Positions 19,891 to 28,742 of a DNA stretch of 55,731 bases are shown one piece after another; positions within the stretch are counted from its first letter, which is position 1, and every line of letters begins with the position of its first letter. The notes beneath the pieces were generated by a model. It was not told the DNA's origin. It did not search any database and saw nothing but the letters and a program-made list of their open reading frames with translations. Position numbers and translations under genes: made by a program. Source of the DNA: Candidatus Caccovivens sp. (GTDB lineage: Bacteria > Bacillota > Clostridia > Christensenellales > UBA1242); the NCBI GenBank assembly GCA_051888935.1, contig JBJFCL010000019.1:1-55731 (forward strand). Direction: 5' to 3'.

Positions 19891-20574
19891 TTATTTTGTA
19901 TTTTCTTTCTCTATTTTGTCCAATTTTTCTGCTTTTGCTTTAAGCAATTCATATTCTTCTTTGGAAATTGTCACAGTTTCGCTATGTTGTATATTTTTAT
20001 TGTCGTTTTTGCCAACTTTTGCCAAAATTTTTAGCGTTACAATCAAAACAACAGCAACAATCGCAAAAGAAACAAAGATTTTTGTTCCCATGCCATTGCC
20101 TTTTGGAATGGTGTCAAAAATAACCAGCGTTGCCACAAAATCCAAGATTGCCAGCAAAATGTAGGTTATAATCTGAAAAACATAGTATCTTTTTCCGAGT
20201 TCCAATGCGATTGAAACCAAAAGATTAAACAGCACAGAAAGTAGTGCAAAACTAATTAAAAAGTGGACATAAATGTCATTGTCTATTGAAAAAGTTGTTT
20301 GAAGTAAAGTGAGAAGAACTGCAACGCTAATAAGAGCCAAAGAAATCCAACCAAGGATTTTGTTTTTTGACAACATATTTATGCTGTTAATTGCGAAGAA
20401 ACACCCAAGAGCAATCGCAAGAATGGAAATAATCAATGGCAAGAACCAACTTCCAAACTGAACACCAAAAATAGCAATAATTCCAAAAATGGCAGCCACA
20501 GAAAGAAACGCCAATGAAACAATCATCAAAATAAATTTTGCAAGTTTTAGTCCTTTCAATTCTCTAATTTTCAT
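19891..20574 (-). CDS. polytopic membrane protein with C-terminal coiled-coil tail, function unknown
   Basis: 227 aa, at least 5 hydrophobic helices, AAGAGG RBS. It overlaps the upstream gene by 11 nt. Confidence 0.65.
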   Translation of the reverse strand: MKIRELKGLKLAKFILMIVSLAFLSVAAIFGIIAIFGVQFGSWFLPLIISILAIALGCFFAINSINMLSKNKILGWISLALISVAVLLTLLQTTFSIDNDIYVHFLISFALLSVLFNLLVSIALELGKRYYVFQIITYILLAILDFVATLVIFDTIPKGNGMGTKIFVSFAIVAVVLIVTLKILAKVGKNDNKNIQHSETVTISKEEYELLKAKAEKLDKIEKENTK

Positions 20575-21199
20575 AATGACCTCTTTTTGTAATGACTAAA
20601 TTGGATAATATCCCTACTAATAATCCTTCGATAAACGCACTGCCATGATTAACTGTAAATAATGTTACAAAAGGACTAAATTCAAGTTTTATCGTAAAAC
20701 TCATTAACAAGAATATAAGAAAAATAGTAATGATTGTAAAAATATTTTGATATTTGGTTAAAAAACATTCTTTAAAATTAAATAATATCTCGATAAAGAA
20801 AAGCCCAAATAGGAAAAAGTTTACCAAACTTTCTCCTCCATTATAAAAGTTAAAGCCCATAATAGCAAAATCAGCCAGCGGACTCAAAGGAATTGTGATT
20901 AAAATAATTAAAGCATATTTAATACTGCCATATCTTCTTTCCAAAAATAAAGATACTACCAAAAAACTTGCAAGATTTCCAATTAAGTGTACCCAACCCC
21001 CAACATGCCTAAAAGGCCGCAAGATAATATTCCATTTAATATTTGTTTTCAAAATTTCATCTATTGCAGGGCGACACCATAAAAATGTTGCCACTAAAAC
21101 CAACATAAACACAATTGTAGTTACATAACAAAAATTAGTGTTTTTCCAAGTTAATGTTTTTCTTTTTTCATTAATTATATTTTTATAAAACTTTCCCAT
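20564..21199 (-). CDS. rhomboid family intramembrane serine protease
   Basis: FRHVGGWVHLIGNL (HxxxxxHxxxN), GGES (GxS) and NHGSAFIEGLLVG. Start is uncertain: ATG 21199 lies 8 nt after TGTTATAAT, while the track start is TTG 21250. Confidence 0.7.
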   Translation of the reverse strand: MGKFYKNIINEKRKTLTWKNTNFCYVTTIVFMLVLVATFLWCRPAIDEILKTNIKWNIILRPFRHVGGWVHLIGNLASFLVVSLFLERRYGSIKYALIILITIPLSPLADFAIMGFNFYNGGESLVNFFLFGLFFIEILFNFKECFLTKYQNIFTIITIFLIFLLMSFTIKLEFSPFVTLFTVNHGSAFIEGLLVGILSNLVITKRGHYEN

Positions 21200-21500
21200 A
21201 ACAAAACTATTATAACATACTATTCCAAAATTTTTATAAAAAAAATGCAAATTTTAAATCAAGTACGAAAAATTTAACATATTAAAATAAAAAAACTTGT
21301 CTCGGCGAGTCTTTTTTGATATAATAACGGACATATCTTCAAAAATACATAAGTTTTGTCGTAGTGTTCGTATAAAAATCGTTTCGGTTGACCTTGACAA
21401 AATATTAGATTGAGAAGAATTTTTGACCCATGACGACAAGAAGTGAACTTACTCGCAAGAGTATGACGCGCAGTGGTCGAATAAACGCGTGGCGTTTCTG

Positions 21501-21554
21501 TTTGCAATTGCAAACAGCCGTTGGGGAAATAAAAAAAACGCCAAAAGGCGTTTT
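21501..21554 (+). repeat. direct repeat copy 1 (palindrome plus terminator hairpin)
   Basis: TTTGCAATTGCAAACAGCCGTTGGGGAAATAAAAAAAACGCCAAAAGGCGTTTT. It is embedded in the perfect 20-bp palindrome CTGTTTGCAATTGCAAACAG (21498-21517). Confidence 0.8.
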
Positions 21555-21601
21555 TTGGTGAACCGATATCAACCTAAATCGAAACATATAAAATAGTAAA
21601 A

Positions 21602-21844
21602 TTACATATATTCTAAATCTTCTCTTTTAAATACATCATTATCTAAAAATTCAATTGGTGTCATTTGAAAACCATCGGCAACTTGATAAATTATTGCGAG
21701 TGTAGGACATTTTGTGTTGCCTTTCATAATGTTGACAATAGTCGACCTTGCAATGCAACTATCTTTTAAAAATTTATGCAATGATATATTCCTTTTCTTT
21801 AACAATTCGTTAAGTCTTATTGTAAATGCTTCGCCTAATGTCAT
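21602..21844 (-). CDS. XRE family HTH transcriptional regulator (repressor-like)
   Basis: 80 aa. LNELLKKRNISLHKFLKDSCIARSTIVNIMKG is an HTH_3-type motif. AAAGGGGA RBS. Confidence 0.85.
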   Translation of the reverse strand: MTLGEAFTIRLNELLKKRNISLHKFLKDSCIARSTIVNIMKGNTKCPTLAIIYQVADGFQMTPIEFLDNDVFKREDLEYM

Positions 21845-21867
21845 AATATTCCCCTTTTACTAATATG

Positions 21868-21989
21868 TCCTAATTTGAATAGTATCATTCTATCAATGGG
21901 AACATTTAAAATTGCGACCTAATTCGGTTAAACATCCTAATTTGGTTGCTATTTTTTTGTCAATGCTGTATAATTGTCCTAATTAGGAC
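21868..21989. promoter_or_regulatory. divergent promoter/operator region with four CCTAATT sites
   Basis: TCCTAATT at 21868, ACCTAATT at 21917, TCCTAATT at 21935, and the perfect palindrome GTCCTAATTAGGAC at 21976-21989. The palindrome lies just downstream of TTGCTA-17-TATAAT (21946-21974). Confidence 0.55.
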
Positions 21990-21995
21990 GATATT

Positions 21996-22568
21996 ATGTG
22001 TAAGGTTTGTTCATTTTTTGGTCATAGAAAAATAGAGATGACAGAAGAACTGAAACAAAAAGTAAGGGTAGTGGTTGAAGGTTTAATTTTAAATCACAGT
22101 GTTTCCACTTTTTTGTTTGGCAGCCGAAGTGATTTTGATTATCTATGCCATTTGGTTGTAACGGAATTAAAAGAAAAATATCCAAAAATAAAAAGAATTG
22201 CGTATACTTGTGGAAGTGAAAGTTGCACATTAGAAAGTGAAAGATTAGAATTGGAAAAATTGTATTCAAAATTCTTTAAACAAGAAGTTAGTTTGCTCGG
22301 GGTGGAAGAAGAAAGGGAATACAAAACAAAATATACATCTGGCAGAGCAAGTTATGTGGAAAGAAATCAAGCAATGATAGATGATAGCGATTATTGTGTT
22401 TTTTATTATGATGAAAATTATAAACCTGAAATGCGAAAATACTCAAAAAGATGTGCTTGCTATTATCAGCCTAAAAGTGGTACAGCGCTTGCCTATGCTT
22501 ATGCCAAACAAAAACGAAAAATTATGATAAATATAAACTTTGCAAAGCAAACAGCCGTCGGGCAATAA
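21996..22568 (+). CDS. SLOG/DUF1273 (YpsA-like) family protein
   Basis: N-terminal CSFFGHRK motif, then a GS..DFD..C..VV.ELK..YP.I Rossmann-like pattern. Confidence 0.65.
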   Translation: MCKVCSFFGHRKIEMTEELKQKVRVVVEGLILNHSVSTFLFGSRSDFDYLCHLVVTELKEKYPKIKRIAYTCGSESCTLESERLELEKLYSKFFKQEVSLLGVEEEREYKTKYTSGRASYVERNQAMIDDSDYCVFYYDENYKPEMRKYSKRCACYYQPKSGTALAYAYAKQKRKIMININFAKQTAVGQ

Positions 22569-22589
22569 AAAAACGCCAAAAGGCGTTTT
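22539..22589 (+). repeat. direct repeat copy 2 (covers the SLOG gene 3' end plus its terminator)
   Basis: TTTGCAAAGCAAACAGCCGTCGGGCAATAAAAAAACGCCAAAAGGCGTTTT. It matches 21501-21554 apart from a few substitutions or indels. Confidence 0.8.
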
Positions 22590-22602
22590 ATTCAATGTAT
22601 CT

Positions 22603-23148
22603 TTATTCCTTTAGTTTACTAATTGTAATTTTTTCTCCATTTAGTTCAAGAGTAAATTTATCTTTATCTTTCAAGTTTAATTTTTCCCTTATATATTTTG
22701 GAATTTGTATAAGCCCATTTGAAAACATTGTTGTAGTTTTAGAATGTAAACTTTCTCTTGTAATATTTGGAATAAGTCCTTCATCTATCGACCTATAAAT
22801 TGTTGTCCTTGAAGGGCATTCAATTCCTTCTTTTTTACATTTTTCTTTTATTTGTATAATAGTCATATGTTCTTGTAAGATTAAGTTAGAAATTAGTTCC
22901 GCTAAATCTTTATTAATAATGAATTTTGGACTATTCCCTTTATTCTTATTTGTCTTCAACGATTTTTGAATTGAATATTCTGCATTATATTTTCCATTTA
23001 ACCAACCTCTTTTCAATTCTTTATATATTGTGCTATATTCAATTCCAACATTTGCTGCAATATTTTTTTTATCATAACCTTGTTCCAGTAATTGCTGAAT
23101 CTGTCTTTTTTGAAATTCTGTTATATTTTTTCTTCCAGTTTTTTTCAT
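22603..23148 (-). CDS. IS30-transposase-type double HTH fused to an AbrB/SpoVT (swapped-hairpin)-like C-terminal domain; no DDE domain
   Basis: The N-terminus is ITEFQKRQIQQLLEQGYDKKNIAANVGIEYSTIYKELKRG, then MTIIQIKEKCKKEGIECPSRTTIYRSI (IS30-like HTH pair). The C-terminus is LIQIPKYIREKLNLKDKDKFTLELNGEKITI. AGGAG RBS. Confidence 0.7.
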   Translation of the reverse strand: MKKTGRKNITEFQKRQIQQLLEQGYDKKNIAANVGIEYSTIYKELKRGWLNGKYNAEYSIQKSLKTNKNKGNSPKFIINKDLAELISNLILQEHMTIIQIKEKCKKEGIECPSRTTIYRSIDEGLIPNITRESLHSKTTTMFSNGLIQIPKYIREKLNLKDKDKFTLELNGEKITISKLKE

Positions 23149-23237
23149 AAATTACTCCTAAGTGAACTTTACCAATATATATTTATAAACTTTATAAAAA
23201 TTAAATTGAACATAGAATTTCTAAGTTTATATTTAAT

Positions 23238-25034
23238 TTATAAAGAATAAAAGTAATCTTTAACTTTATTAGCCATTAAGACTCGTCTTTGTGATAAAAA
23301 TTCTTCAAAGTTGTCGTAAGTCATATTCATAACACTTTCAGGAATTGCATTTTCTTTTAAGTTTTTAACCAAATCTTCTTTATTATCTATACATCCAAAT
23401 ACAGAATTTCCACCATTAACTTGTTGTTCAAGTTTATTAAAATATTCAATTGGTGGTAAATTACTAATTTGTATATTTATTTCTTGTTGCAAGTATACAT
23501 AATTTGCAATTTGATTATATTGTTGCATAGTATTTATTCCACTTTTAATTAGATAATCTTTTGGGAAAATGTGGTGTACATCTCCTCGCTGTTCAACTAA
23601 ATCTCTAACGGTCATACTCTTAGATAAAAATGCTCTATTTGATAATTTAATTTGACTAACAACAAACATTCGCCAATAAGGGCTGCTTGTAACAGAAGTG
23701 TTGAACTTATCCACCAATATTTTGTTCCAATATGCTTCAGATAATTCTGCTTCTTCTTGCATTTTAATATAAGAAGGTATATTTTCACAATTTGCTAATC
23801 TTTTAACATCATAGTCAAATCTTGATTCTGGAGAGCCAGAATATCTTTCTGTTAGAATGCTGTATACAACCCATCTTCTTACAGAATTTTCAATGATACT
23901 GGCATCATATCCTTTTTCTTTCATAAGCAAATACAAAATATATCCAAAATTTAGTACATTTTGTGACCTTATTAAATCTTCATTTATTATACCCGAAGAT
24001 TTTACAATCATTATGTATCTTTTATAATTTGTTTCATTTACAAAATCTTTAACTCCTGAATACAACTCGCTAAAACTTTTTTCAATTATTTCTTCTTTAA
24101 ACTCTCTTGTCTCAAAATCTCTACCAGACAAAAGGCTTACAAGGTCTTGCAATTTTCCTCTCTTAAATTTATAAGTAAAAGCAACTCTCAAAATGTCTAC
24201 ATATGATGGTTTATATAAATTATCAGTATATTTACTCGCCCAAGCAATTTTGCTAAACACCTCTTTGCTTGCAAATTCTTTATCATAATTTTTTATAGAA
24301 TCAAAATCTTGTGGAGTTTCAAGAAAATGAGAAAAATAATCAATGACTTTTCTTATATCATTCCCTTCGTATTCTTCATTTACACTTATTTTAGACAATG
24401 CAAAATCTGCTTGTGAAAGAGGAACGCCTTTTGAGTTTATTCTTACAAATATTTCAGTAACTGTATCAATATCTATTTTTGAAGATAATTCAATTCTACC
24501 AATTCCTAAGTTTAGAATTTCATTTAACTTATTTAATCTTTGATTTACTTCATTAGGAGTAATATTTGCAATCTTTGCATAATCAGTACAAAATTGAAAT
24601 GTATCTAAAACTTTATCATTCATTAAAGTTGCAATATCGCTTATCCATTCGTTACTCTTTTCGTGAGCAGGGGTAGAAACTGCAAATATCTCATTTTTAA
24701 TATTAAAAGCTATTTTTATTCTTTTTTTCTTATATTGAGAATTTAACACTTCATTCCCGCGAATTGCTGCTGATAATGCAGTTACTCTCTGTTGTCCATC
24801 AATAAGTATTTGTTTTCCCTCTGAAATTGTTCCATCTTTTAATTTTACATTTGGATTTTTCCAAGTAATTATATAGCCAACAGGATAACCTTTATATAAA
24901 GAATCAATTAAATCTCTAACTTTTGTTGCATCCCAAACAAAAGGTCTTTGAATTTCTGGGATAGCAATAACACCATCATCAACATAACTAAGTAAAGTGT
25001 TAATTTTAACACTATTAACTTCAAAACTTGCCAT
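23238..25034 (-). CDS. DUF262/DUF1524 protein (GmrSD-like type IV restriction / ParB-like NTPase plus His-Me nuclease)
   Basis: IPEIQRPFVWD and LIDGQQRVTAL (DUF262 motifs). C-terminal GDVHHIFPKDYL ... IANYVYLQQEINIQISN is HNH-like DUF1524. AAGGAG RBS. Confidence 0.88.
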   Translation of the reverse strand: MASFEVNSVKINTLLSYVDDGVIAIPEIQRPFVWDATKVRDLIDSLYKGYPVGYIITWKNPNVKLKDGTISEGKQILIDGQQRVTALSAAIRGNEVLNSQYKKKRIKIAFNIKNEIFAVSTPAHEKSNEWISDIATLMNDKVLDTFQFCTDYAKIANITPNEVNQRLNKLNEILNLGIGRIELSSKIDIDTVTEIFVRINSKGVPLSQADFALSKISVNEEYEGNDIRKVIDYFSHFLETPQDFDSIKNYDKEFASKEVFSKIAWASKYTDNLYKPSYVDILRVAFTYKFKRGKLQDLVSLLSGRDFETREFKEEIIEKSFSELYSGVKDFVNETNYKRYIMIVKSSGIINEDLIRSQNVLNFGYILYLLMKEKGYDASIIENSVRRWVVYSILTERYSGSPESRFDYDVKRLANCENIPSYIKMQEEAELSEAYWNKILVDKFNTSVTSSPYWRMFVVSQIKLSNRAFLSKSMTVRDLVEQRGDVHHIFPKDYLIKSGINTMQQYNQIANYVYLQQEINIQISNLPPIEYFNKLEQQVNGGNSVFGCIDNKEDLVKNLKENAIPESVMNMTYDNFEEFLSQRRVLMANKVKDYFYSL

Positions 25035-25136
25035 AAGAGACTCCTTATTTAAAAACTAATTATAATATAACATAAAATTAAGAATTTGTATAAATATATT
25101 TTAAAAAATTAAAATAATTTTTTAATTTGGCATTTA

Positions 25137-25232
25137 GGCGTGTGCTTGGTTATACAAGTGGTGAGCTATCACCCCAAAAGTGCTATGCACTTTCGGGGAA
25201 CCCCGATATGCTCCACCAACCAAGCACACGCC
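25137..25232 (-). ncRNA. 96-nt G+C-rich rod-like hairpin (candidate structured RNA or replication-origin hairpin)
   Basis: A 15-bp outer stem, GGCGTGTGCTTGGTT/AACCAAGCACACGCC, encloses GGTGAGC/GCTC(C)ACC and a 12-bp inner stem. The single non-Watson-Crick position of the inner stem is A.C on the plus strand but G.U on the minus strand. Confidence 0.4.
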
Positions 25233-25306
25233 CTATCTTTAACTTTAATTAAAATGAAAATAAACTTAAGTATACAAATATTAACAAAAAATTAAATAAT
25301 GCTCTT

Positions 25307-25370
25307 TGCAAAACGAAAAGTGGGCTAAAAAGTGGACACGGCTAAAGCAATCGTGCTCCACTTTTTTCTT
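25307..25370. other. second nested hairpin carrying AAAGTG repeats
   Basis: AAAGTGGGC (25307-25315) pairs with GCCCACTTT (25362-25370). Inside it, AAAAAGTGGACACG pairs with CGTGCTCCACTTTTT. Confidence 0.4.
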
Positions 25371-25769
25371 CGCCCACTTTCTTTTTTTTGCACTATCCAT
25401 AATTTTCGTATAAAAATTTTCTTATTGACCTTTCATAAACAATAAAAAGTTTTGCTTTTGTTTTTGTTTTATTTGAGAATTACTTTTGATTTCGTTTGAG
25501 TTGAGTTTGTTGTATTCGATTGAAACGCTTGCTAACATAAAGAAGAATGTTATCAAACAATGTTGGAAAAGTGATTGCTGTGGGGCAAGCGATATCATTC
25601 TTTCACATTATTGTTTGTGATACATTTACAACAGCAATAAGAAAGACAACGCAAAAATGACAAGCCGAGATTTTCGCATAGAAACAGTGGTTGCATTTTA
25701 ATGGCGTAGGAAATTAAAAAGTTTCTCTATGCCTTTTTAATTGCAAAAAACTAAAAGGAGGCAACCACT

Positions 25770-25898
25770 ATGAAAATCGTTTTTACAAACGAATTCAATC
25801 CAAATGTTTTAGATTCTTCATTCTTCCAAACATTATTTAATCGCCTTGTAATATTGCAAGAACAAAAGGAAAGCGAAGATGCACTACCCAAAAGTTAA
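25770..25898 (+). CDS. 42-aa ORF upstream of and overlapping rep (below the ORF-track cutoff)
   Basis: ATG 25770 lies 8 nt after AAAGGAGG. Sequence: MKIVFTNEFNPNVLDSSFFQTLFNRLVILQEQKESEDALPKS. The stop at 25896-25898 overlaps the rep ATG (25879) out of frame. Confidence 0.35.
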   Translation: MKIVFTNEFNPNVLDSSFFQTLFNRLVILQEQKESEDALPKS

Positions 25899-26748
25899 AG
25901 TGTATTTTGATGGTGGTCATTACATTGGTATCCCACAAACACCACAAATTTGGAAGAAAAGAAAGAATAAAAAGAAACCTACAAATGACACAATGAAAGT
26001 AAGATTTGATGAACTTTATAAAGAAAATAGGGCTTTGAAGAATAAAGAGAAACAAGAAATAATTGTAAACAAATTAACAGCAGAATTTGAAAGCGAGGAA
26101 AAAGCAAGAGAGTTTGTAAAAAAGAATTTTGAAAGAAAACGAAGAAACGATATTGAACGCAGAAAAAGATTGTATAGAAAAGTTTATTTGCAAGAATGGA
26201 ATTATTTTTGCACATTTACTTATGATGATAAAAAACTAAATGAAACTGAATTTAGAGAAAAACTGACTAATTGTTTAAGACATTTGGCAAATCGCAATGG
26301 GTGGAAATATGTTGGTGTTTGGGAAAGAAGTCCATTGAACAACAGATTACATTTTCATTCTTTGGTGTATGCACCACAAATGGTTGGAATATTTGAAACG
26401 AAAACAGATTACAGCACAGAGAAACATAAAATGCAGACAACAAATCAAAACACATTTTTCTTGCAACGATTTGGCAGAAACGATTTTAAGATTATCAACG
26501 ATTTTGAATTAAATCAAGCAGTTAAATATTTGACAAAGTATATGGAAAAGAGTGGAGAGAAAATTGTCTATTCAAAGGGTTTGAAAACATATTTTGTAAG
26601 CGAAATTATAGAAAGCGATATTGTTTGCACAATTGGAAATGAGAATAGAAAGTTGTTATTGTTTGACGATTTTTATTGCATTGTAGATGATGAATGTATA
26701 GGCAAAGTTTGCCTAGAAGTTATACAAAAGATGCCAAAGTCGAATTGA
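25879..26748 (+). CDS. HUH-superfamily rolling-circle replication initiator / relaxase-like protein
   Basis: Three ordered motifs: FCTFTYD (motif I), RLHFHSLVY (HUH) and AVKYLTKYMEK (YxxxY catalytic tyrosines). Confidence 0.8.
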   Translation: MHYPKVKVYFDGGHYIGIPQTPQIWKKRKNKKKPTNDTMKVRFDELYKENRALKNKEKQEIIVNKLTAEFESEEKAREFVKKNFERKRRNDIERRKRLYRKVYLQEWNYFCTFTYDDKKLNETEFREKLTNCLRHLANRNGWKYVGVWERSPLNNRLHFHSLVYAPQMVGIFETKTDYSTEKHKMQTTNQNTFFLQRFGRNDFKIINDFELNQAVKYLTKYMEKSGEKIVYSKGLKTYFVSEIIESDIVCTIGNENRKLLLFDDFYCIVDDECIGKVCLEVIQKMPKSN

Positions 26749-26752
26749 TTTT

Positions 26753-26901
26753 GTCTTTTCGCCTACAGAGCGTAAACGAAACTACATTTGCTGTCAAGGG
26801 TAAAGTTCATTGACTTTGTCAACCCTTGACAGTAAATAAAAGAAATTTTGAAGAATTAAAATTTGAAAGCGGTTTCGTTTTTACGCCCCTTGTCGAAAGA
26901 C
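26753..26901. repeat. nested inverted repeats between rep and the recombinase gene
   Basis: Outer arms are GTCTTTTCG..GCGTAAACGAAAC and GTTTCGTTTTTACGC..CGAAAGAC. The inner repeat is a perfect 11-bp pair, CTGTCAAGGGT (26791-26801) and ACCCTTGACAG (26822-26832). Confidence 0.6.
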
Positions 26902-26932
26902 AAATAAAAAAATATATAAAAGGAGTTTAGAA

Positions 26933-28435
26933 ATGAAAAAAGCAGTTGTATACGCAAGATACTCTTGCGACAATCAAACAGAACAAAGTATTGAGGGACA
27001 ACTAAGAGTGTGCGAAGAATATGCAAAAAATAACGACATATTAATTTTGAACACTTACATTGACCGAGCAATGACAGGAACAAACGATTTGCGACCAGAT
27101 TTTCAAAGAATGTTGAAAGACAGCAAAAACAAACAATGGGACTATGTATTGGTCTATAAACTTGATAGATTTTCGAGAAATAAATATGAAAGTGTTTTGC
27201 ATAAAAAGACATTGAAAGAAAATGGTGTGAAAGTGATATCTGCAATGGAAAACATACCAGACACACCAGAGGGCATAATCTTAGAAAGTTTACTTGAAGG
27301 TATGAACCAATACTATTCAGCAGAACTTGCACAAAAGGTAAAAAGAGGTATGCACGAGACAAGATTAAAAGGTTATTTTCAAGGAGGCACATTATTGTAT
27401 GGATATAAACTTGACGGAAGAAAAATTGTTGTCGATGAAGAACAAGCTGAAATAGTAAGATATATCTATAAGCAATATTCACTTGGCATATTTGTCAAGA
27501 CAATAATAAAAACTTTAACTGAAAAAGGTGTTTTATATAAAGGAAAACCTTTGGCAAGAAACACAGTATATGGCATTCTAAAAAATGAAAAATATTCTGG
27601 AAAATATATGCACGAAGAAGAAATAGTTGACAATATGTATCCTCAAATCGTGCCAACTGAACTTTTTCAAAAGGTAAGAGATAAGATAAGCAAAAACAAG
27701 TATGGGAAAAAGAGTGTAAAAACAACATATCTTTTAAGAGGTAAATTAAAATGTGGTTATTGTGGATTGCCAATAATTGCAGAGAGTGGAACAACAAGGC
27801 ACGGCAAAACTATTCATTATTACAAATGCTCTGGAAGAAAAAATAAATTGAACAATTGCCAAAAAAGTGTAATTCAAAAAGAAATATTAGAAAAGTTTGT
27901 GTTAGACAATGTAATAAATCAACTCAAAAAGCAAGAGAATATGAATGCGATTGTAAAAGGATTGTTAGAAATTCAAGATAAAAGTTTAAATGAAAACAGA
28001 GAATTATCGATAATGCAAAAACAGAAAAAACAATTAGAGAATACACTCAACAACATTATGTCGGCTATTGAAAAAGGTGTTGTGACAAAGACAACGGCAA
28101 ACAGACTAAAAGAAGTTGAAAGCCAGCTTGAAGAATTAGAGAAAAAGATTTTGATCGAGAAGAACAAATTGTCAGTTAAAATACCAGAAAGTATAATAAG
28201 ACAATATTACAGCGTTATGTTAGAATTAGAACCTTTGCCTTTAATAAACAACCTAATAAAAGAAATCAAATTGTATGATGATAAAATTGAAGTGACTTTC
28301 AATAGTCCAATAAAAACAAGTCCTGACGAAAATCAGGGCTTTTTATTTTACTCAAAAACACATAAAATCTTATTTGTAAATCAAAACCAAAATATATGTG
28401 AAATGAGAGATATTGTGATTAAATTATTTGTATAG
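26933..28435 (+). CDS. large serine recombinase (integrase)
   Basis: VVYARYSCDNQTEQSIEGQ contains the catalytic Ser region; YKLDRFSRN is also present. Followed by a recombinase domain, Cys-rich zinc ribbon (CGYCG...YYKC) and coiled-coil. AAAGGAG RBS. Confidence 0.93.
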   Translation: MKKAVVYARYSCDNQTEQSIEGQLRVCEEYAKNNDILILNTYIDRAMTGTNDLRPDFQRMLKDSKNKQWDYVLVYKLDRFSRNKYESVLHKKTLKENGVKVISAMENIPDTPEGIILESLLEGMNQYYSAELAQKVKRGMHETRLKGYFQGGTLLYGYKLDGRKIVVDEEQAEIVRYIYKQYSLGIFVKTIIKTLTEKGVLYKGKPLARNTVYGILKNEKYSGKYMHEEEIVDNMYPQIVPTELFQKVRDKISKNKYGKKSVKTTYLLRGKLKCGYCGLPIIAESGTTRHGKTIHYYKCSGRKNKLNNCQKSVIQKEILEKFVLDNVINQLKKQENMNAIVKGLLEIQDKSLNENRELSIMQKQKKQLENTLNNIMSAIEKGVVTKTTANRLKEVESQLEELEKKILIEKNKLSVKIPESIIRQYYSVMLELEPLPLINNLIKEIKLYDDKIEVTFNSPIKTSPDENQGFLFYSKTHKILFVNQNQNICEMRDIVIKLFV

Positions 28436-28457
28436 TGCCTATTTATTCCACGGTGAA

Positions 28458-28573
28458 CTTGACATGAGCCTCTTGAATGGGAAATTTTTTGGCAAACAAG
28501 TCAAAGGAAGGAAGCAAAATGCTGTTAATCCTTTGCCTTGTTTAATTATGTACCCATTCCTTCTCATGTCAAG
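28458..28573. repeat. 116-nt extended imperfect hairpin between the recombinase gene and tRNA-Glu
   Basis: Paired segments are CTTGACATGAG/CTCATGTCAAG (11 bp), GAATGGG/CCCATTC, AAACAAG/CTTGTTT and CAAAGGA/TCCTTTG. Confidence 0.6.
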
Positions 28574-28667
28574 CACCTTTCGCGGCATAAACCGGCACTC
28601 AAATGGAATGAAAAAAGAAAACCTAGCTCTTTCCCCTAAATATAGGGGGTTCGAATTAGGTTTTGAT

Positions 28668-28742
28668 TGGTGACCCCGACGGGATTCGAACCCATGATAC
28701 CGCCGTGAAAGGGCGGTGTCTTAACCGCTTGACCACGGGGCC
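28668..28742 (-). tRNA. tRNA-Glu (anticodon UUC), CCA encoded
   Basis: Reverse complement is GGCCCCGTGGTCAAGCGGTTAAGACACCGCCCTTTCACGGCGGTATCATGGGTTCGAATCCCGTCGGGGTCACCA. It folds as a cloverleaf with anticodon loop CTTTCAC. Confidence 0.95.

Follow-up and report, generated by a model that had tools for sequence, protein, structure and literature searches.

An HUH Rep and a large serine recombinase in a probable integrative element at the 3' end of tRNA-Glu in Candidatus Caccovivens

Introduction

IMEs of Firmicutes that combine a serine integrase with an RCR-type Rep have already been described (PMC5357655, PMC5704250). The described serine-integrase IMEs disrupt genes, namely rumA, traG, maff2 and snf2 (Coluzzi 2017, PMC5357655; Guedon 2017, PMC5704250). 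Among streptococcal IMEs, RCR-Rep-like putative relaxases include Rel_PHA00330 and Rel_PF01719, and 35 of 118 such IMEs have no coupling protein (PMC5357655, PMC5704250). For large serine recombinases (LSRs), a model of the att sites places the attP and attB motifs 5 bp out of register (Rutherford et al. 2013, PMC3783163). Here we describe an island of this general kind in a 55,731-nt stretch of DNA from Candidatus Caccovivens sp., hereafter the window.

Results

Gene calls and domain searches bore out the gene census of the first-pass annotation: seven intact, full-length ORFs, none of them housekeeping, lie between a rhomboid gene (20564-21250), outside the island's left end, and tRNA-Glu(UUC). 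TTGGTGA, a block of 7 bp, is present at 21555-21561 and again at 28667-28673, and the element spans 21555-28673 of the window, with a size of 7,112 bp. The start originally placed at 21498 was wrong, the actual left end being ~60 nt further in, and the tRNA, originally counted in the block, is the target and lies outside the element. Upon clustering at 90% identity, all island proteins were singletons except the XRE regulator. The island is probably a site-specific integrative element, inserted by its own LSR at the 3' (CCA) end of tRNA-Glu(UUC); in all likelihood, the tRNA was undamaged by the insertion.

According to ARAGORN and Rfam (64.5 bits), tRNA-Glu(UUC) is encoded on the minus strand at 28668-28742, and its 3' end therefore faces the LSR gene, as the first-pass annotation had it. 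The tRNA, as integration target, provides the B' half-site. attR (28643-28673) comprises the element-side P arm (..GGGGGTTCGAATTAGGTTTTGA) and TTGGTGA (28667-28673), whose last 6 nt are the tRNA 3' end. attL (21555-21585) comprises TTGGTGA (21555-21561) and the element-side P' arm, ACCGATATCAACCTAAATCGAAAC. Within the island, the P and P' arms are imperfectly inverted copies of each other, with 18 of 25 positions identical; random 25-mers reached at least 17 identities at a rate of 7.5e-5. In both the window and L039/L041, relatives that have a P' arm homologue, the top-scoring inverted counterpart of the attR arm in 14 kb lay 4 nt past the core copy. This symmetry is as expected for the attL and attR of an LSR. 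We infer that the crossover dinucleotide is the GA at 21560-21561 within TTGGTGA.

The host-side flank of attL is an intrinsic terminator (21532-21554; AAAAACGCCTTTTGGCGTTTTTTT on the minus strand) predicted by DNA folding, and relatives L028, L030 and L041 likewise have terminator hairpins to their left. The host-side B arm contained no recognisable half-site. Joining the flanks in silico rebuilt an empty site consisting of tRNA-Glu with the terminator directly behind it. Together, the defined att ends, their LSR-type symmetry and this rebuilt site support the earlier proposal of an LSR-driven integrative element at tRNA-Glu. An empty site in related genomes and a circular junction of the exact element were looked for and not found, nor was a second copy; the host is not among the GTDB representatives.

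TTCGAAC occupies positions 16-24 in the att arms and 11-19 in the T-loop of the tRNA. Judged from these sequences, the ZD-motif positions match the published 5-bp shift between attP and attB. The zinc ribbon of the LSR would, following the published LSR model, read TTCGAAC at both sets of positions, so that the T-loop of the tRNA itself seems to supply the sequence recognised by the enzyme.

The LSR (26933-28435, plus strand) comprises the Pfam domains Resolvase, Recombinase and Zn_ribbon_recom, matched a PHROG integrase at 1e-109 and has 6056 relatives. The alignment of its catalytic domain with that of TP901-1 integrase takes in YxRxSxxxQ and the DRxSR motif, which reads DRFSR in the island. 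CcrB and CcrA were its top NCBIfam matches, at 144 bits against a Ccr cut-off of 900. No directionality factor was identified in the element. A conserved 42-aa ORF (25770-25898, plus strand) overlaps the start of the Rep gene, and homologous small ORFs occupy the same position in L013, L021, L028 and L039; its product is a candidate regulator or directionality factor.

The HUH rolling-circle Rep (25879-26748, plus strand) matched PF23343 (REP_ORF2-G2P) at 6.4e-12. It carries the motifs FCTFT, RLHFH and Y217xxxY221xxK, and these three HUH motifs are invariant across 30-37 homologues. A search of 72,556 plasmid records gave no relatives of Rep; replication as an autonomous, plasmid-like unit is thus undocumented for the Rep-LSR family. 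The absence from plasmids also fits a second reading, which we regard as a serious but minority possibility: that Rep is the relaxase of a classical IME and not a replication initiator, with hairpin 1 as oriT and export by the T4SS of a co-resident conjugative element. Streptococcal IMEs likewise combine integrases with RCR-Rep-like putative relaxases. However, this Rep family is not known to act as a relaxase, a YxxxY motif with two tyrosines typifies processive initiators of the phage type, and the island encodes no coupling protein. A relaxase role would be a sub-mechanism of the main explanation and does not exclude it, since MobT is known to serve both purposes.

The four long hairpins reported initially, which occupy the gaps between genes, were upheld: when each was folded as ssDNA and compared with 200 shuffles, no shuffle was as good. 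Hairpin 1 (25137-25231, plus strand; z = -6.7) forms the left edge of the conserved backbone. It occurs in 52 distinct sequences, 570-1140 nt 5' of Rep, where its stem covaries and its loop reads CTTG..ATACAAG, and is 100% identical to its L012 counterpart over 39 nt while the two Reps are only 72% identical. These features make hairpin 1 a plausible candidate for the Rep nick site and double-strand origin, or for oriT. Hairpin 2 (25307-25392, plus strand; z = -6.0) is kept in close relatives, with blastn matches to L016-L027. Hairpin 4, a nested structure between Rep and LSR (26770-26886, plus strand; z = -5.9), is kept in five relatives with some compensatory changes. Hairpin 5, a 150-nt closed structure (28442-28591, plus strand; z = -4.6), lies directly 3' of the LSR stop. 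Among 13 divergent examples, 12 of its 23 pairs had compensatory changes, as compared to 5.2 ± 1.2 in shuffles (0/500) and at most 5 in slid controls. It is a candidate single-strand origin, ssDNA promoter or RNA. Alternatively, the covariation of inverted repeats could reflect dimer binding on duplex DNA and not hairpins.

The conserved backbone (25122-28673) consists of hairpin 1, the 42-aa ORF, the HUH Rep, the nested hairpin, the LSR, the 150-nt hairpin and the att arm, and recurs in hundreds of metagenome contigs (>582 loci). The combination of Rep, LSR, GmrSD, HTH-AbrB and SLOG that the first-pass annotation did not recognise as a described element type is therefore incidental, the conserved unit being only the 42-aa ORF, Rep and LSR with the hairpins. 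In 23 of 37 distinct Rep+LSR elements, the LSR end lies at the 3' CCA end of a tRNA on the minus strand, 85-1042 nt past the LSR stop; no tRNA was near this end in the other 14. The targets cover at least 7 amino-acid specificities. In the tRNA-associated relatives, a conserved TTCGAtTTAGGTT arm adjoins TGG(T/C)G, and a homologue of the attR arm adjoins the tRNA in 22 distinct relatives besides the island. L028-type relatives are 99.9% identical, yet have at least 4 different flanks, including two different tRNAs, with junctions of the form flank|TGGCGGAG.. and ..GTTGGCGGA|tRNA-Ser. The relatives are thus mobile, close copies being demonstrably at different sites. Together with the shared backbone, the invariant HUH motifs and the hairpin upstream of Rep, the multi-flank relative lends comparative support to the replication or mobilisation via Rep proposed at the outset. 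Apparently, these small elements of gut-type Firmicutes form a large family that has so far gone undescribed.

These observations bear on whether the island has become fixed, as a domesticated defence island that has lost its mobility and retains Rep and LSR only as relics. The element has been seen once only, with neither empty site nor circle. By contrast, none of its seven ORFs is truncated, Rep and LSR have intact catalytic motifs, both att arms are kept and symmetric, hairpins 1, 4 and 5 are complete and agree with the consensus of the family, and close relatives occupy different sites. We consider a domesticated remnant the most improbable of the alternatives.

It is scarcely more probable that the element is a satellite of a phage, or derives from a filamentous-type ssDNA phage, and that a helper virus replicates and packages it through the G2P-like Rep and the hairpins, the latter serving as packaging signal and minus-strand origin. 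The Pfam family of Rep is named for plectrovirus ORF2 and inovirus G2P, and the PDB structures nearest to its AF2 model, albeit weak matches, are HUH endonuclease domains of ssDNA-virus Reps. The multi-hairpin non-coding regions resemble the Ff intergenic region, and one Rep relative occurs in a record labelled bacteriophage. That record, however, is unverified and unannotated, with Dnd/Ssp-like genes beside Rep; the island contains no PHROG structural, packaging or hijacking gene; and the family accounts for only 2 loci in 2.9 million IMG/VR contigs, against the >582 in metagenomes. The absence of phage-related genes and near-absence from IMG/VR leave the label 'satellite-like', used initially, unsupported.

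Cargo on the backbone changes between relatives, from R-M systems, the Kiwa component KwaA and SNIPE to helicases; here it includes a GmrSD-like nuclease. Hairpin 1 and the far att site bound the cargo slot, which in the island holds this nuclease, an HTH-AbrB regulator and an XRE-SLOG module. The 598-aa GmrSD-like protein (23238-25034, minus strand) matched GmrSD_N/DUF262 at 6.6e-33 and contains DGQQR. Of the DUF262-DUF1524 architecture assigned earlier, the DUF262 part stood; the C-terminal DUF1524/GmrSD_C match was weak (E 0.011; 16 bits, cut-off 23), with an HH...N...N motif visible. PADLOC matches were to HEC-05 (8e-29), a candidate-defence model, and SspE (4e-7). This is consistent with the anti-phage payload suggested previously: the protein is a putative type IV modification-dependent nuclease and would be the island's defence cargo. 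The HTH_38 protein with a C-terminal AbrB/MazE-like domain (22603-23148, minus strand; TIGR01439, 8.8e-8), whose N-terminus resembles the IS30 HTH, is probably a regulator.

The XRE-family HTH regulator (21602-21844, minus strand; HTH_3, E 2.8e-5) is the last gene at the recombinase-distal end and belongs to a 16-member cluster at 90%. The divergent control region (21845-21995), with operator-like repeats TCCTAATTAGGA and variants, separates it from a SLOG/YpsA-family protein (21996-22568, plus strand; Pfam YpsA 2.3e-7, 31.4 bits against a cut-off of 27.7). The latter is 37% identical (E 2e-23) to the product of the L004 gene divergent from XRE, and is taken as partner to the XRE gene. The control region has 82% DNA identity with L004-L011. 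A 45-nt repeat has one copy in the host-side terminator at the attL flank and a second at the 3' end of the SLOG gene, with its terminator (22547-22589, plus strand). This terminator copy inside the island could hint at a more complex history. In one such history, the XRE-SLOG segment (21562-22589) was captured from another IME family or remains from an older element, and the native element is 22590-28673. The repeat brackets exactly XRE and SLOG and is absent elsewhere in the window, and unrelated tyrosine-integrase/MobL IMEs contain the module at 82% DNA identity, likewise with the XRE gene at the integrase-distal end. However, a functional-looking P' arm sits to the left of the XRE gene, which places XRE-SLOG within the present element; neither core nor P' arm follows the second repeat copy; and module swapping between elements also fits the main explanation. 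A composite is unlikely, if less so than a phage derivative.

We propose that the integrative element would move as follows. The LSR would recombine attL with attR at the GA of TTGGTGA, giving a circle with a near-palindromic attP. Rep would then make a plus-strand nick in the hairpin 1 loop, initiating rolling-circle replication, ssDNA transfer or both. Strand-specific hairpins might return the single strand to duplex, the least certain step, and the LSR would re-integrate the circle at a tRNA end. No gene for a coupling protein, a relaxase accessory factor or packaging indicates how the element would be transferred.

Discussion

The island belongs to a kind already known, the IME-like element with a serine integrase and an RCR-type Rep, and shares features with several other systems. 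As in pC194/phiX174-type rolling-circle replicons, Rep has HUH motifs; its two tyrosines are spaced YxxxY, as in phiX174 protein A, and the CTTG(A/G/T)..ATA loop of hairpin 1 resembles the nick consensus CTTGATA. Unlike them, the island is coupled to an integrase and normally chromosomal, and its Rep has no sequence-level relative among the plasmids searched. Tn4451/Tn4453 of Clostridium/Clostridioides (TnpX, TnpZ Mob, catP) are likewise compact (about 6 kb) clostridial integrative mobilisable elements that carry cargo besides a large serine recombinase and a single DNA-processing protein. However, TnpZ is a Mob/Pre relaxase where the island has an HUH Rep, TnpX is of low target specificity without tRNA targeting, and the cargo is antibiotic resistance.

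SCC elements (CcrAB/CcrC), too, integrate without disruption at the 3' end of a housekeeping gene related to RNA, have cargo that varies and includes defences, and occur in tandem arrays; they differ in targeting rlmH, not a tRNA, and in lacking a Rep, and the island's LSR scores far under the Ccr cut-off. Insertion at tRNA 3' ends with tandem accretion, and a small integration-plus-replication backbone with a swappable cargo/defence slot, are shared with the defence-carrying tyrosine-integrase elements (tycheposons, PICIs, P4-like satellites and pipolins). By contrast, the island has a serine recombinase, would replicate via an HUH Rep and not a primase, helicase or PolB, and is devoid of phage-interference and packaging genes.

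With A118/LI, Bxb1 and phiC31-type integrases, the LSR shares a three-domain architecture, an attP of two symmetric ~25-bp arms, an attB-side motif 5 bp nearer the centre and a short identity block around the central dinucleotide (PMC3783163). It differs in its target, a tRNA acceptor/T-arm end, in a motif that is the universal T-loop, in a second attB arm that is an arbitrary terminator and in the many tRNAs used by its relatives.

Finally, like the Firmicute serine-integrase IMEs with an RCR-initiator-like putative relaxase, for example the Rel_PHA00330 or Rel_PF01719 IMEs of streptococci, the island is small and integrated. One end has an integrase gene that faces outward, the sole DNA-processing protein is an HUH/RCR-type Rep, the cargo varies and T4SS genes are lacking. 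The island's Rep belongs to PF23343; hairpins 1, 4 and 5 and the 42-aa ORF are undescribed in those elements, and the island lacks a TcpA coupling protein. Whereas the described elements disrupt genes, the Rep-LSR family goes to the 3' ends of tRNA genes and leaves these intact. Its LSR targeting of tRNA ends and its PF23343-type Rep family look undescribed.

Gene content of the island

The gene inventory of the first-pass annotation was borne out by an ORF list, a tRNA scan and domain searches. Beyond its left neighbour, a rhomboid gene (20564–21250, minus strand), the ORF list and domain searches together yielded an XRE protein (21602–21844, minus), a YpsA/SLOG protein (21996–22568, plus), an HTH_38 and AbrB/MazE-like protein (22603–23148, minus) and a 598-residue DUF262/GmrSD_N protein (23238–25034, minus). 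These are followed by a 42-aa ORF from the ORF list (25770–25898, plus) and, from the domain searches, an HUH Rep of family PF23343 (25879–26748, plus) and a three-domain large serine recombinase (LSR; 26933–28435, plus). The tRNA scan placed tRNA-Glu(UUC) at 28668–28742 on the minus strand, its 3′ end towards the LSR gene. None of the seven ORFs is a T4SS gene. The four long hairpins are likewise real: folded as ssDNA, they reached z-scores between −4.6 and −6.7, and none of 200 shuffles folded as well. A search of Rfam over 19–31 kb returned no match besides the tRNA. The G+C content is 0.25–0.31 over the island versus about 0.33–0.40 elsewhere in the window. The rhomboid and adjoining membrane-protein genes just beyond attL (19891–21250) are also low, at 0.28–0.31, as in the island and under most of the window.

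The 598-residue protein had been called a GmrSD-type nuclease, and its N-terminal region agrees with that call: residues 12–214 match GmrSD_N (DUF262) at 6.6e-33, and the translation contains LIDGQQRVTAL, with the DGQQR motif. The C-terminal DUF1524 call is weak. The GmrSD_C match (E 0.011, 16.1 bits) falls below the cut-off of 23, and the protein shows a DVHHIFPKDYL...N...N motif. PADLOC assigned it to the candidate-defence model HEC-05 only (8e-29).

Together with its divergent, operator-rich promoter, the XRE gene shares 82% DNA identity over 437 nt with the integrase-distal end of unrelated IMEs (L004–L011; for example, L004 9250–10104) that encode a tyrosine integrase, a MobL relaxase and a BpuSI-like restriction-modification (R-M) system. 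In these IMEs the XRE protein is at least 90% identical, and its divergent partner encodes a protein with 37% identity to the SLOG protein. Operator-like TCCTAATTAGGA repeats accompany the XRE gene and divergent SLOG-like gene both in the window (21602–22568) and in L004–L011; within the element, no XRE operators occur outside 21868–21988. The recurrence of this pair in unrelated tyrosine-integrase/MobL IMEs indicates that it is a portable two-gene module.

Attachment sites and element boundaries

Boundaries were first worked out on a relative found in several contexts, and the same logic was then applied to the window. Five loci (L028, L030, L031, L034 and L035) share DNA that is 99.9% identical from TGGCGGAGCAAC at one flank to CCGTTGGCGGA at the other, and differ beyond. 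On the right, this shared DNA adjoins the tRNA-Ser(UGA) 3′ end in L031 and L035. In L034 it adjoins another tRNA-like 3′ end, on a contig that runs out too early for a tRNA gene to be called.

In the window, TTGGTGA occurs at 28667–28673 and 21555–21561, and the last six bases of the former correspond to the ..TCACCA-3′ end of the tRNA. For the 24 nt that adjoin the tRNA on its left, the best inverted match within 14 kb upstream lies at 21566, 4 nt past the second TTGGTGA. These two element-side arms, P (attR) and P′ (attL), are identical at 18 of 25 positions in symmetric register; random 25-mers of the window reach at least 17 at a rate of 7.5e-5. The same arrangement, scoring 18/24, was found in L039/L041, loci with the closest LSR relative (78% identity) inserted at a tRNA-Arg. 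Joining the outer flanks places tRNA-Glu directly before a strong terminator hairpin, and left flanks in relatives are likewise terminator hairpins. The two TTGGTGA copies, the symmetric arms and the rebuilt tRNA/terminator junction together delimit a predicted element of 7,112 bp, from 21555–21561 to 28667–28673, which leaves tRNA-Glu intact. At the level of sequence, its ends match the layout of LSR-type att sites: a short identity block, symmetric element arms, and a distal motif that on the host side sits 5 bp nearer the centre. The reconstructed attP includes GGGGGTTCGAATTAGGTTTTGATTGGTGAACCGATATCAACCTAAATCGAAAC and the reconstructed attB includes CGCCAAAAGGCGTTTTTTGGTGACCCCGACGGGATTCGAACC. 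We rejected ACCTTTCGCGGCATAAACCGGCAC as an att arm: this conserved motif makes up the 3′ strand of hairpin 5, 70 nt off the junction.

A 45-nt direct repeat occurs at 21510–21554, in the host-side terminator, and at 22547–22589, at the 3′ end and terminator of the SLOG gene; these are its only two copies in 55.7 kb. In the empty site, the first copy would be the terminator after tRNA-Glu. A rival reading of the repeat is that the island has a composite history.

An ungapped inverted-repeat search found no left ends in 20 further relatives; these probably lie beyond the 10-kb flanks or have indels in their arms. At the right end, at 28620–28662 and the equivalent place in many relatives, a second inverted AACCTA..TAGGTT pairing (e.g. 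aacctaaaccaaac..ttaggttcgatttaggtt) forms a small hairpin that takes in the P arm and may serve as an accessory site or as a terminator. In the tRNA-Arg-targeting L039/L041 sites, the central dinucleotide would by symmetry be GC, a palindrome. Known serine integrases lose control of orientation when the att centre is palindromic.

tRNA targeting by related elements

The 3′ ends of tRNA genes are classic targets of tyrosine integrases. We surveyed tRNAs in all fetched loci using tblastn and ARAGORN, which gave 37 distinct Rep–LSR elements with enough downstream DNA. In 23 of these, a minus-strand tRNA has its 3′ end 85–1042 nt beyond the LSR stop codon. The tRNAs are Glu, Arg, Ser, Val, Ala and Tyr, with several anticodons, as well as Lys in L082. 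A conserved arm, gTTCGAtTTAGGTT, is present in the DNA adjoining TGG(T/C)G in nearly all tRNA-adjacent relatives. The nearest LSR (78% identity) uses tRNA-Arg and a more distant one (73%) uses tRNA-Glu, indicating that targets switch readily.

Tandem or composite sites occur among the remaining 14 elements. In L020, the arm and TGGCGG are followed by another defence island. In L028 (12555–14800), the Rep–LSR element ends at TTGGCGGA, flush with a second LSR gene in the opposite orientation and with no tRNA between them. This second gene shares 74% DNA identity with the N-terminal region of the window LSR and lies in a prophage-like block that also encodes a LexA-like repressor. At the left end of L043 (60–110), a relative inserted at tRNA-Glu, the order is P arm, TGGTGA, P′ arm, and the P arm is unlike L043's own; this suggests two different related elements in tandem at one tRNA.

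A conserved backbone with variable cargo

Relatives of the backbone proteins are numerous: we found 4,239 for Rep and more than 6,000 at E ≤ 1e-50 for the LSR. At 90% identity every island protein is a singleton, XRE excepted. In all long contigs inspected, an overlapping ORF of 31–50 aa precedes Rep and an LSR of ∼480–500 aa follows it; the 42-aa ORF of the window is conserved in relatives. According to blastn of the island against relatives' loci, conservation starts abruptly at 25122 and extends to about 28530. The genes to the left of this backbone vary between the long contigs inspected and include AlwI-type R-M with DUF6119, methylases with KwaA, SNIPE/T5orf172, a DEAD helicase, DpnII/Mrr/DndB and type I R-M. 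Accordingly, the genes whose combination (Rep, LSR, GmrSD, HTH-AbrB and SLOG) had been singled out are indeed present, but the combination does not define an element type: it is incidental, the cargo differing between relatives. In the tRNA-Ser-targeting subgroup (L028 12595–13014, L031 and L033–L035), the place of hairpin 5, flanked by the LSR gene and the att arm, is taken by a 139-aa gene encoding a topoisomerase-type C4 zinc ribbon.

Profile searching of metagenome contigs identified more than 582 Rep relatives, many of human gut origin. In IMG/VR, just 2 loci in 2.9 million contigs carry Rep relatives, and one relative occurs in an unverified 'phage' record. This record (L038, MT835493.1 21730–40491, 'UNVERIFIED Bacteriophage sp.') has a Rep of 49% identity without an adjoining LSR. 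This Rep lies beside a PAPS-reductase/Fe-S protein, DUF4007, a 1202-aa protein and a class V aminotransferase, a set resembling a Dnd/Ssp-type phosphorothioation cluster.

Rep and the candidate origins

Rep scored 46 bits against PF23343 (cut-off 27.8). Its motifs I (FCTFT), II (RLHFH, the HUH motif) and III (Y217-x3-Y221-x2-K224) are invariant in 30–37 homologues. The AF2 model has a pLDDT of 76.5, and its top Foldseek matches, all weak (E 0.02–0.7, TM 0.2–0.56), are the Rep domains of wheat dwarf virus, vientovirus and circovirus. A Rep profile found no match among PDB sequences.

Hairpin 1 (25137–25231) marks the border between cargo and backbone. Across 52 distinct sequences, it lies 570–1140 nt upstream of Rep. 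A stretch of 39 nt is 100% identical to that in the related locus L012, while Rep is just 72% identical. The stem covaries (GGCGTGTGCTTG/CAAGCACACGCC; GGCGGGTG../..CACCCGCC; GGCGTATG../..CATACGCC), and the loop, CTTG(A/G/T)..ATACAAG, is similar to CTTGATA, the nick consensus of pC194 and phiX174. We infer that hairpin 1 may be the Rep nick site, as a double-strand origin or oriT.

Hairpin 4, in the Rep–LSR interval, is conserved with some compensatory changes. Hairpin 5 (28442–28591) begins a few bases past the LSR stop codon, and the near-invariant TTTATTCCACGG and CTTTCGCGGCATAAA close it. Over 13 divergent examples, 92.6% of cells are paired. Both sides have changed in 12 of 23 pairs versus 5.2 ± 1.2 in shuffles (0/500), and slid controls gave at most 5. 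Hairpin 5 also has G-T pairs on the plus strand, TTGACA within the stem and a terminator-like hairpin at its apex. A transcript ending at such an apex would be unable to form the outer stem. These features favour a role as ssDNA, and with modest confidence we propose a single-strand origin or ssDNA promoter; an RNA or duplex binding site is a possible alternative. A duplex sigma-70 promoter was dropped, as the −10-like element is not conserved among relatives. Together with the family-wide hairpin 1, hairpin 5 provides testable candidate ssDNA origins or promoters within an integrative element.

Mobility and class of the element

An exact look-up of the rhomboid protein, seeking an empty site or second copy, returned no match, and that of comFC returned two short Logan contigs only, both ending within the tRNA. 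These contigs (L001 and L002, from other runs) correspond to the window from 28706 onward, have an identical comFC region and break off within tRNA-Glu, 38 nt short of its 3′ end. Assembly could have been interrupted there by a repeated tRNA or by a polymorphic site. The sole comFC match among contigs of species-representative genomes, from Lachnospiraceae, is 30% identical, indicating that the host lineage is absent from these representatives. For the circular form, the attP-junction pattern had no match in IMG/VR and terminal overlaps were present in none of the fetched contigs; the only P–core–P′ junction seen was that at the left end of L043.

An integrase of its own and defined att boundaries, as in IMEs, are both present. 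A phage satellite (PICI, P4-like, PLE or cfPICI) is not supported: a PHROG scan yielded integrase, HTH and unknown-function matches only, and the family is nearly absent from IMG/VR. Nor is a rolling-circle plasmid: tblastn found no Rep relatives among the 72,556 PLSDB records. Overall, the att boundaries, the backbone family and the occurrence of relatives in different flanks support the main proposal of the first-pass annotation, that of an integrative element with its own LSR at tRNA-Glu.

Proposed site recognition by the LSR and comparison with known systems

The LSR comprises, in order, resolvase (PF00239, 6.8e-29), Recombinase (PF07508, 9.9e-15) and zinc beta-ribbon (PF13408, 4.9e-12) domains. 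Its YARYSCDNQ and YKLDRFSR segments align to YTRVSTTNQ and YKLDRLSR of the TP901-1 integrase (3bvp), so that the catalytic-serine context YxRxSxxxQ and the DRxSR motif (here DRFSR) are both present. Counting outward from the inferred central GA, AATTCGAAC and AAATCGAAA occupy positions 16–24 on the element arms, and GATTCGAAC, in the tRNA T-loop, occupies positions 11–19 on the tRNA side. In the LI/A118 integrase, the zinc-ribbon-domain motif is at 16–24 in attP and 5 bp inward, at 11–19, in attB (Rutherford et al., PMC3783163); the motif positions of the island match this geometry exactly. The host-side B arm, in the terminator, has no T-loop-like motif; this may account for target switching as well as for tandem insertion.

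A broader proposal, which we consider possible if somewhat improbable as a whole, is that compact Rep–LSR elements are a distinct, abundant and undescribed class in gut-type Clostridia, whose LSR evolved to read the T-loop/acceptor end as an attB half-site. Such reading would permit non-disruptive insertion, easy tRNA switching and tandem accretion, because a single specific attB arm would suffice. The elements would move or replicate as ssDNA through a conserved set of strand-specific hairpins, one providing the nick site and another, of 150 nt and just past the integrase gene, acting as ssDNA origin or promoter. They would also be a dedicated shuttle of anti-phage systems. If true, an LSR clade using the T-loop as its zinc-ribbon motif would mean that LSR specificity can rest on a universal sequence, and its related integrases, whose attB sites differ but are predictable, would form a natural series of use for integrase engineering. 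The catalogue of vehicles that move defence genes among gut Firmicutes is still incomplete. A very small one, with a 3.5-kb backbone, appears to carry such genes between them, its apparent cargo being R-M, a Kiwa component (KwaA), SNIPE, GmrSD-like and other defence genes.

In the literature searched, we found no description of the Rep–LSR family and no paper on PF23343. The kind of element is nonetheless already known: it is IME-like and pairs a serine integrase with an RCR-type Rep. The aspects of the family that look undescribed are the targeting of tRNA ends by a T-loop-like motif, the conserved hairpins and the apparent role as a compact carrier of defence genes. Site-specific IMEs with serine recombinases are described as inserting within genes, tRNA ends being the targets of tyrosine integrases (PMC5357655, PMC5704250).
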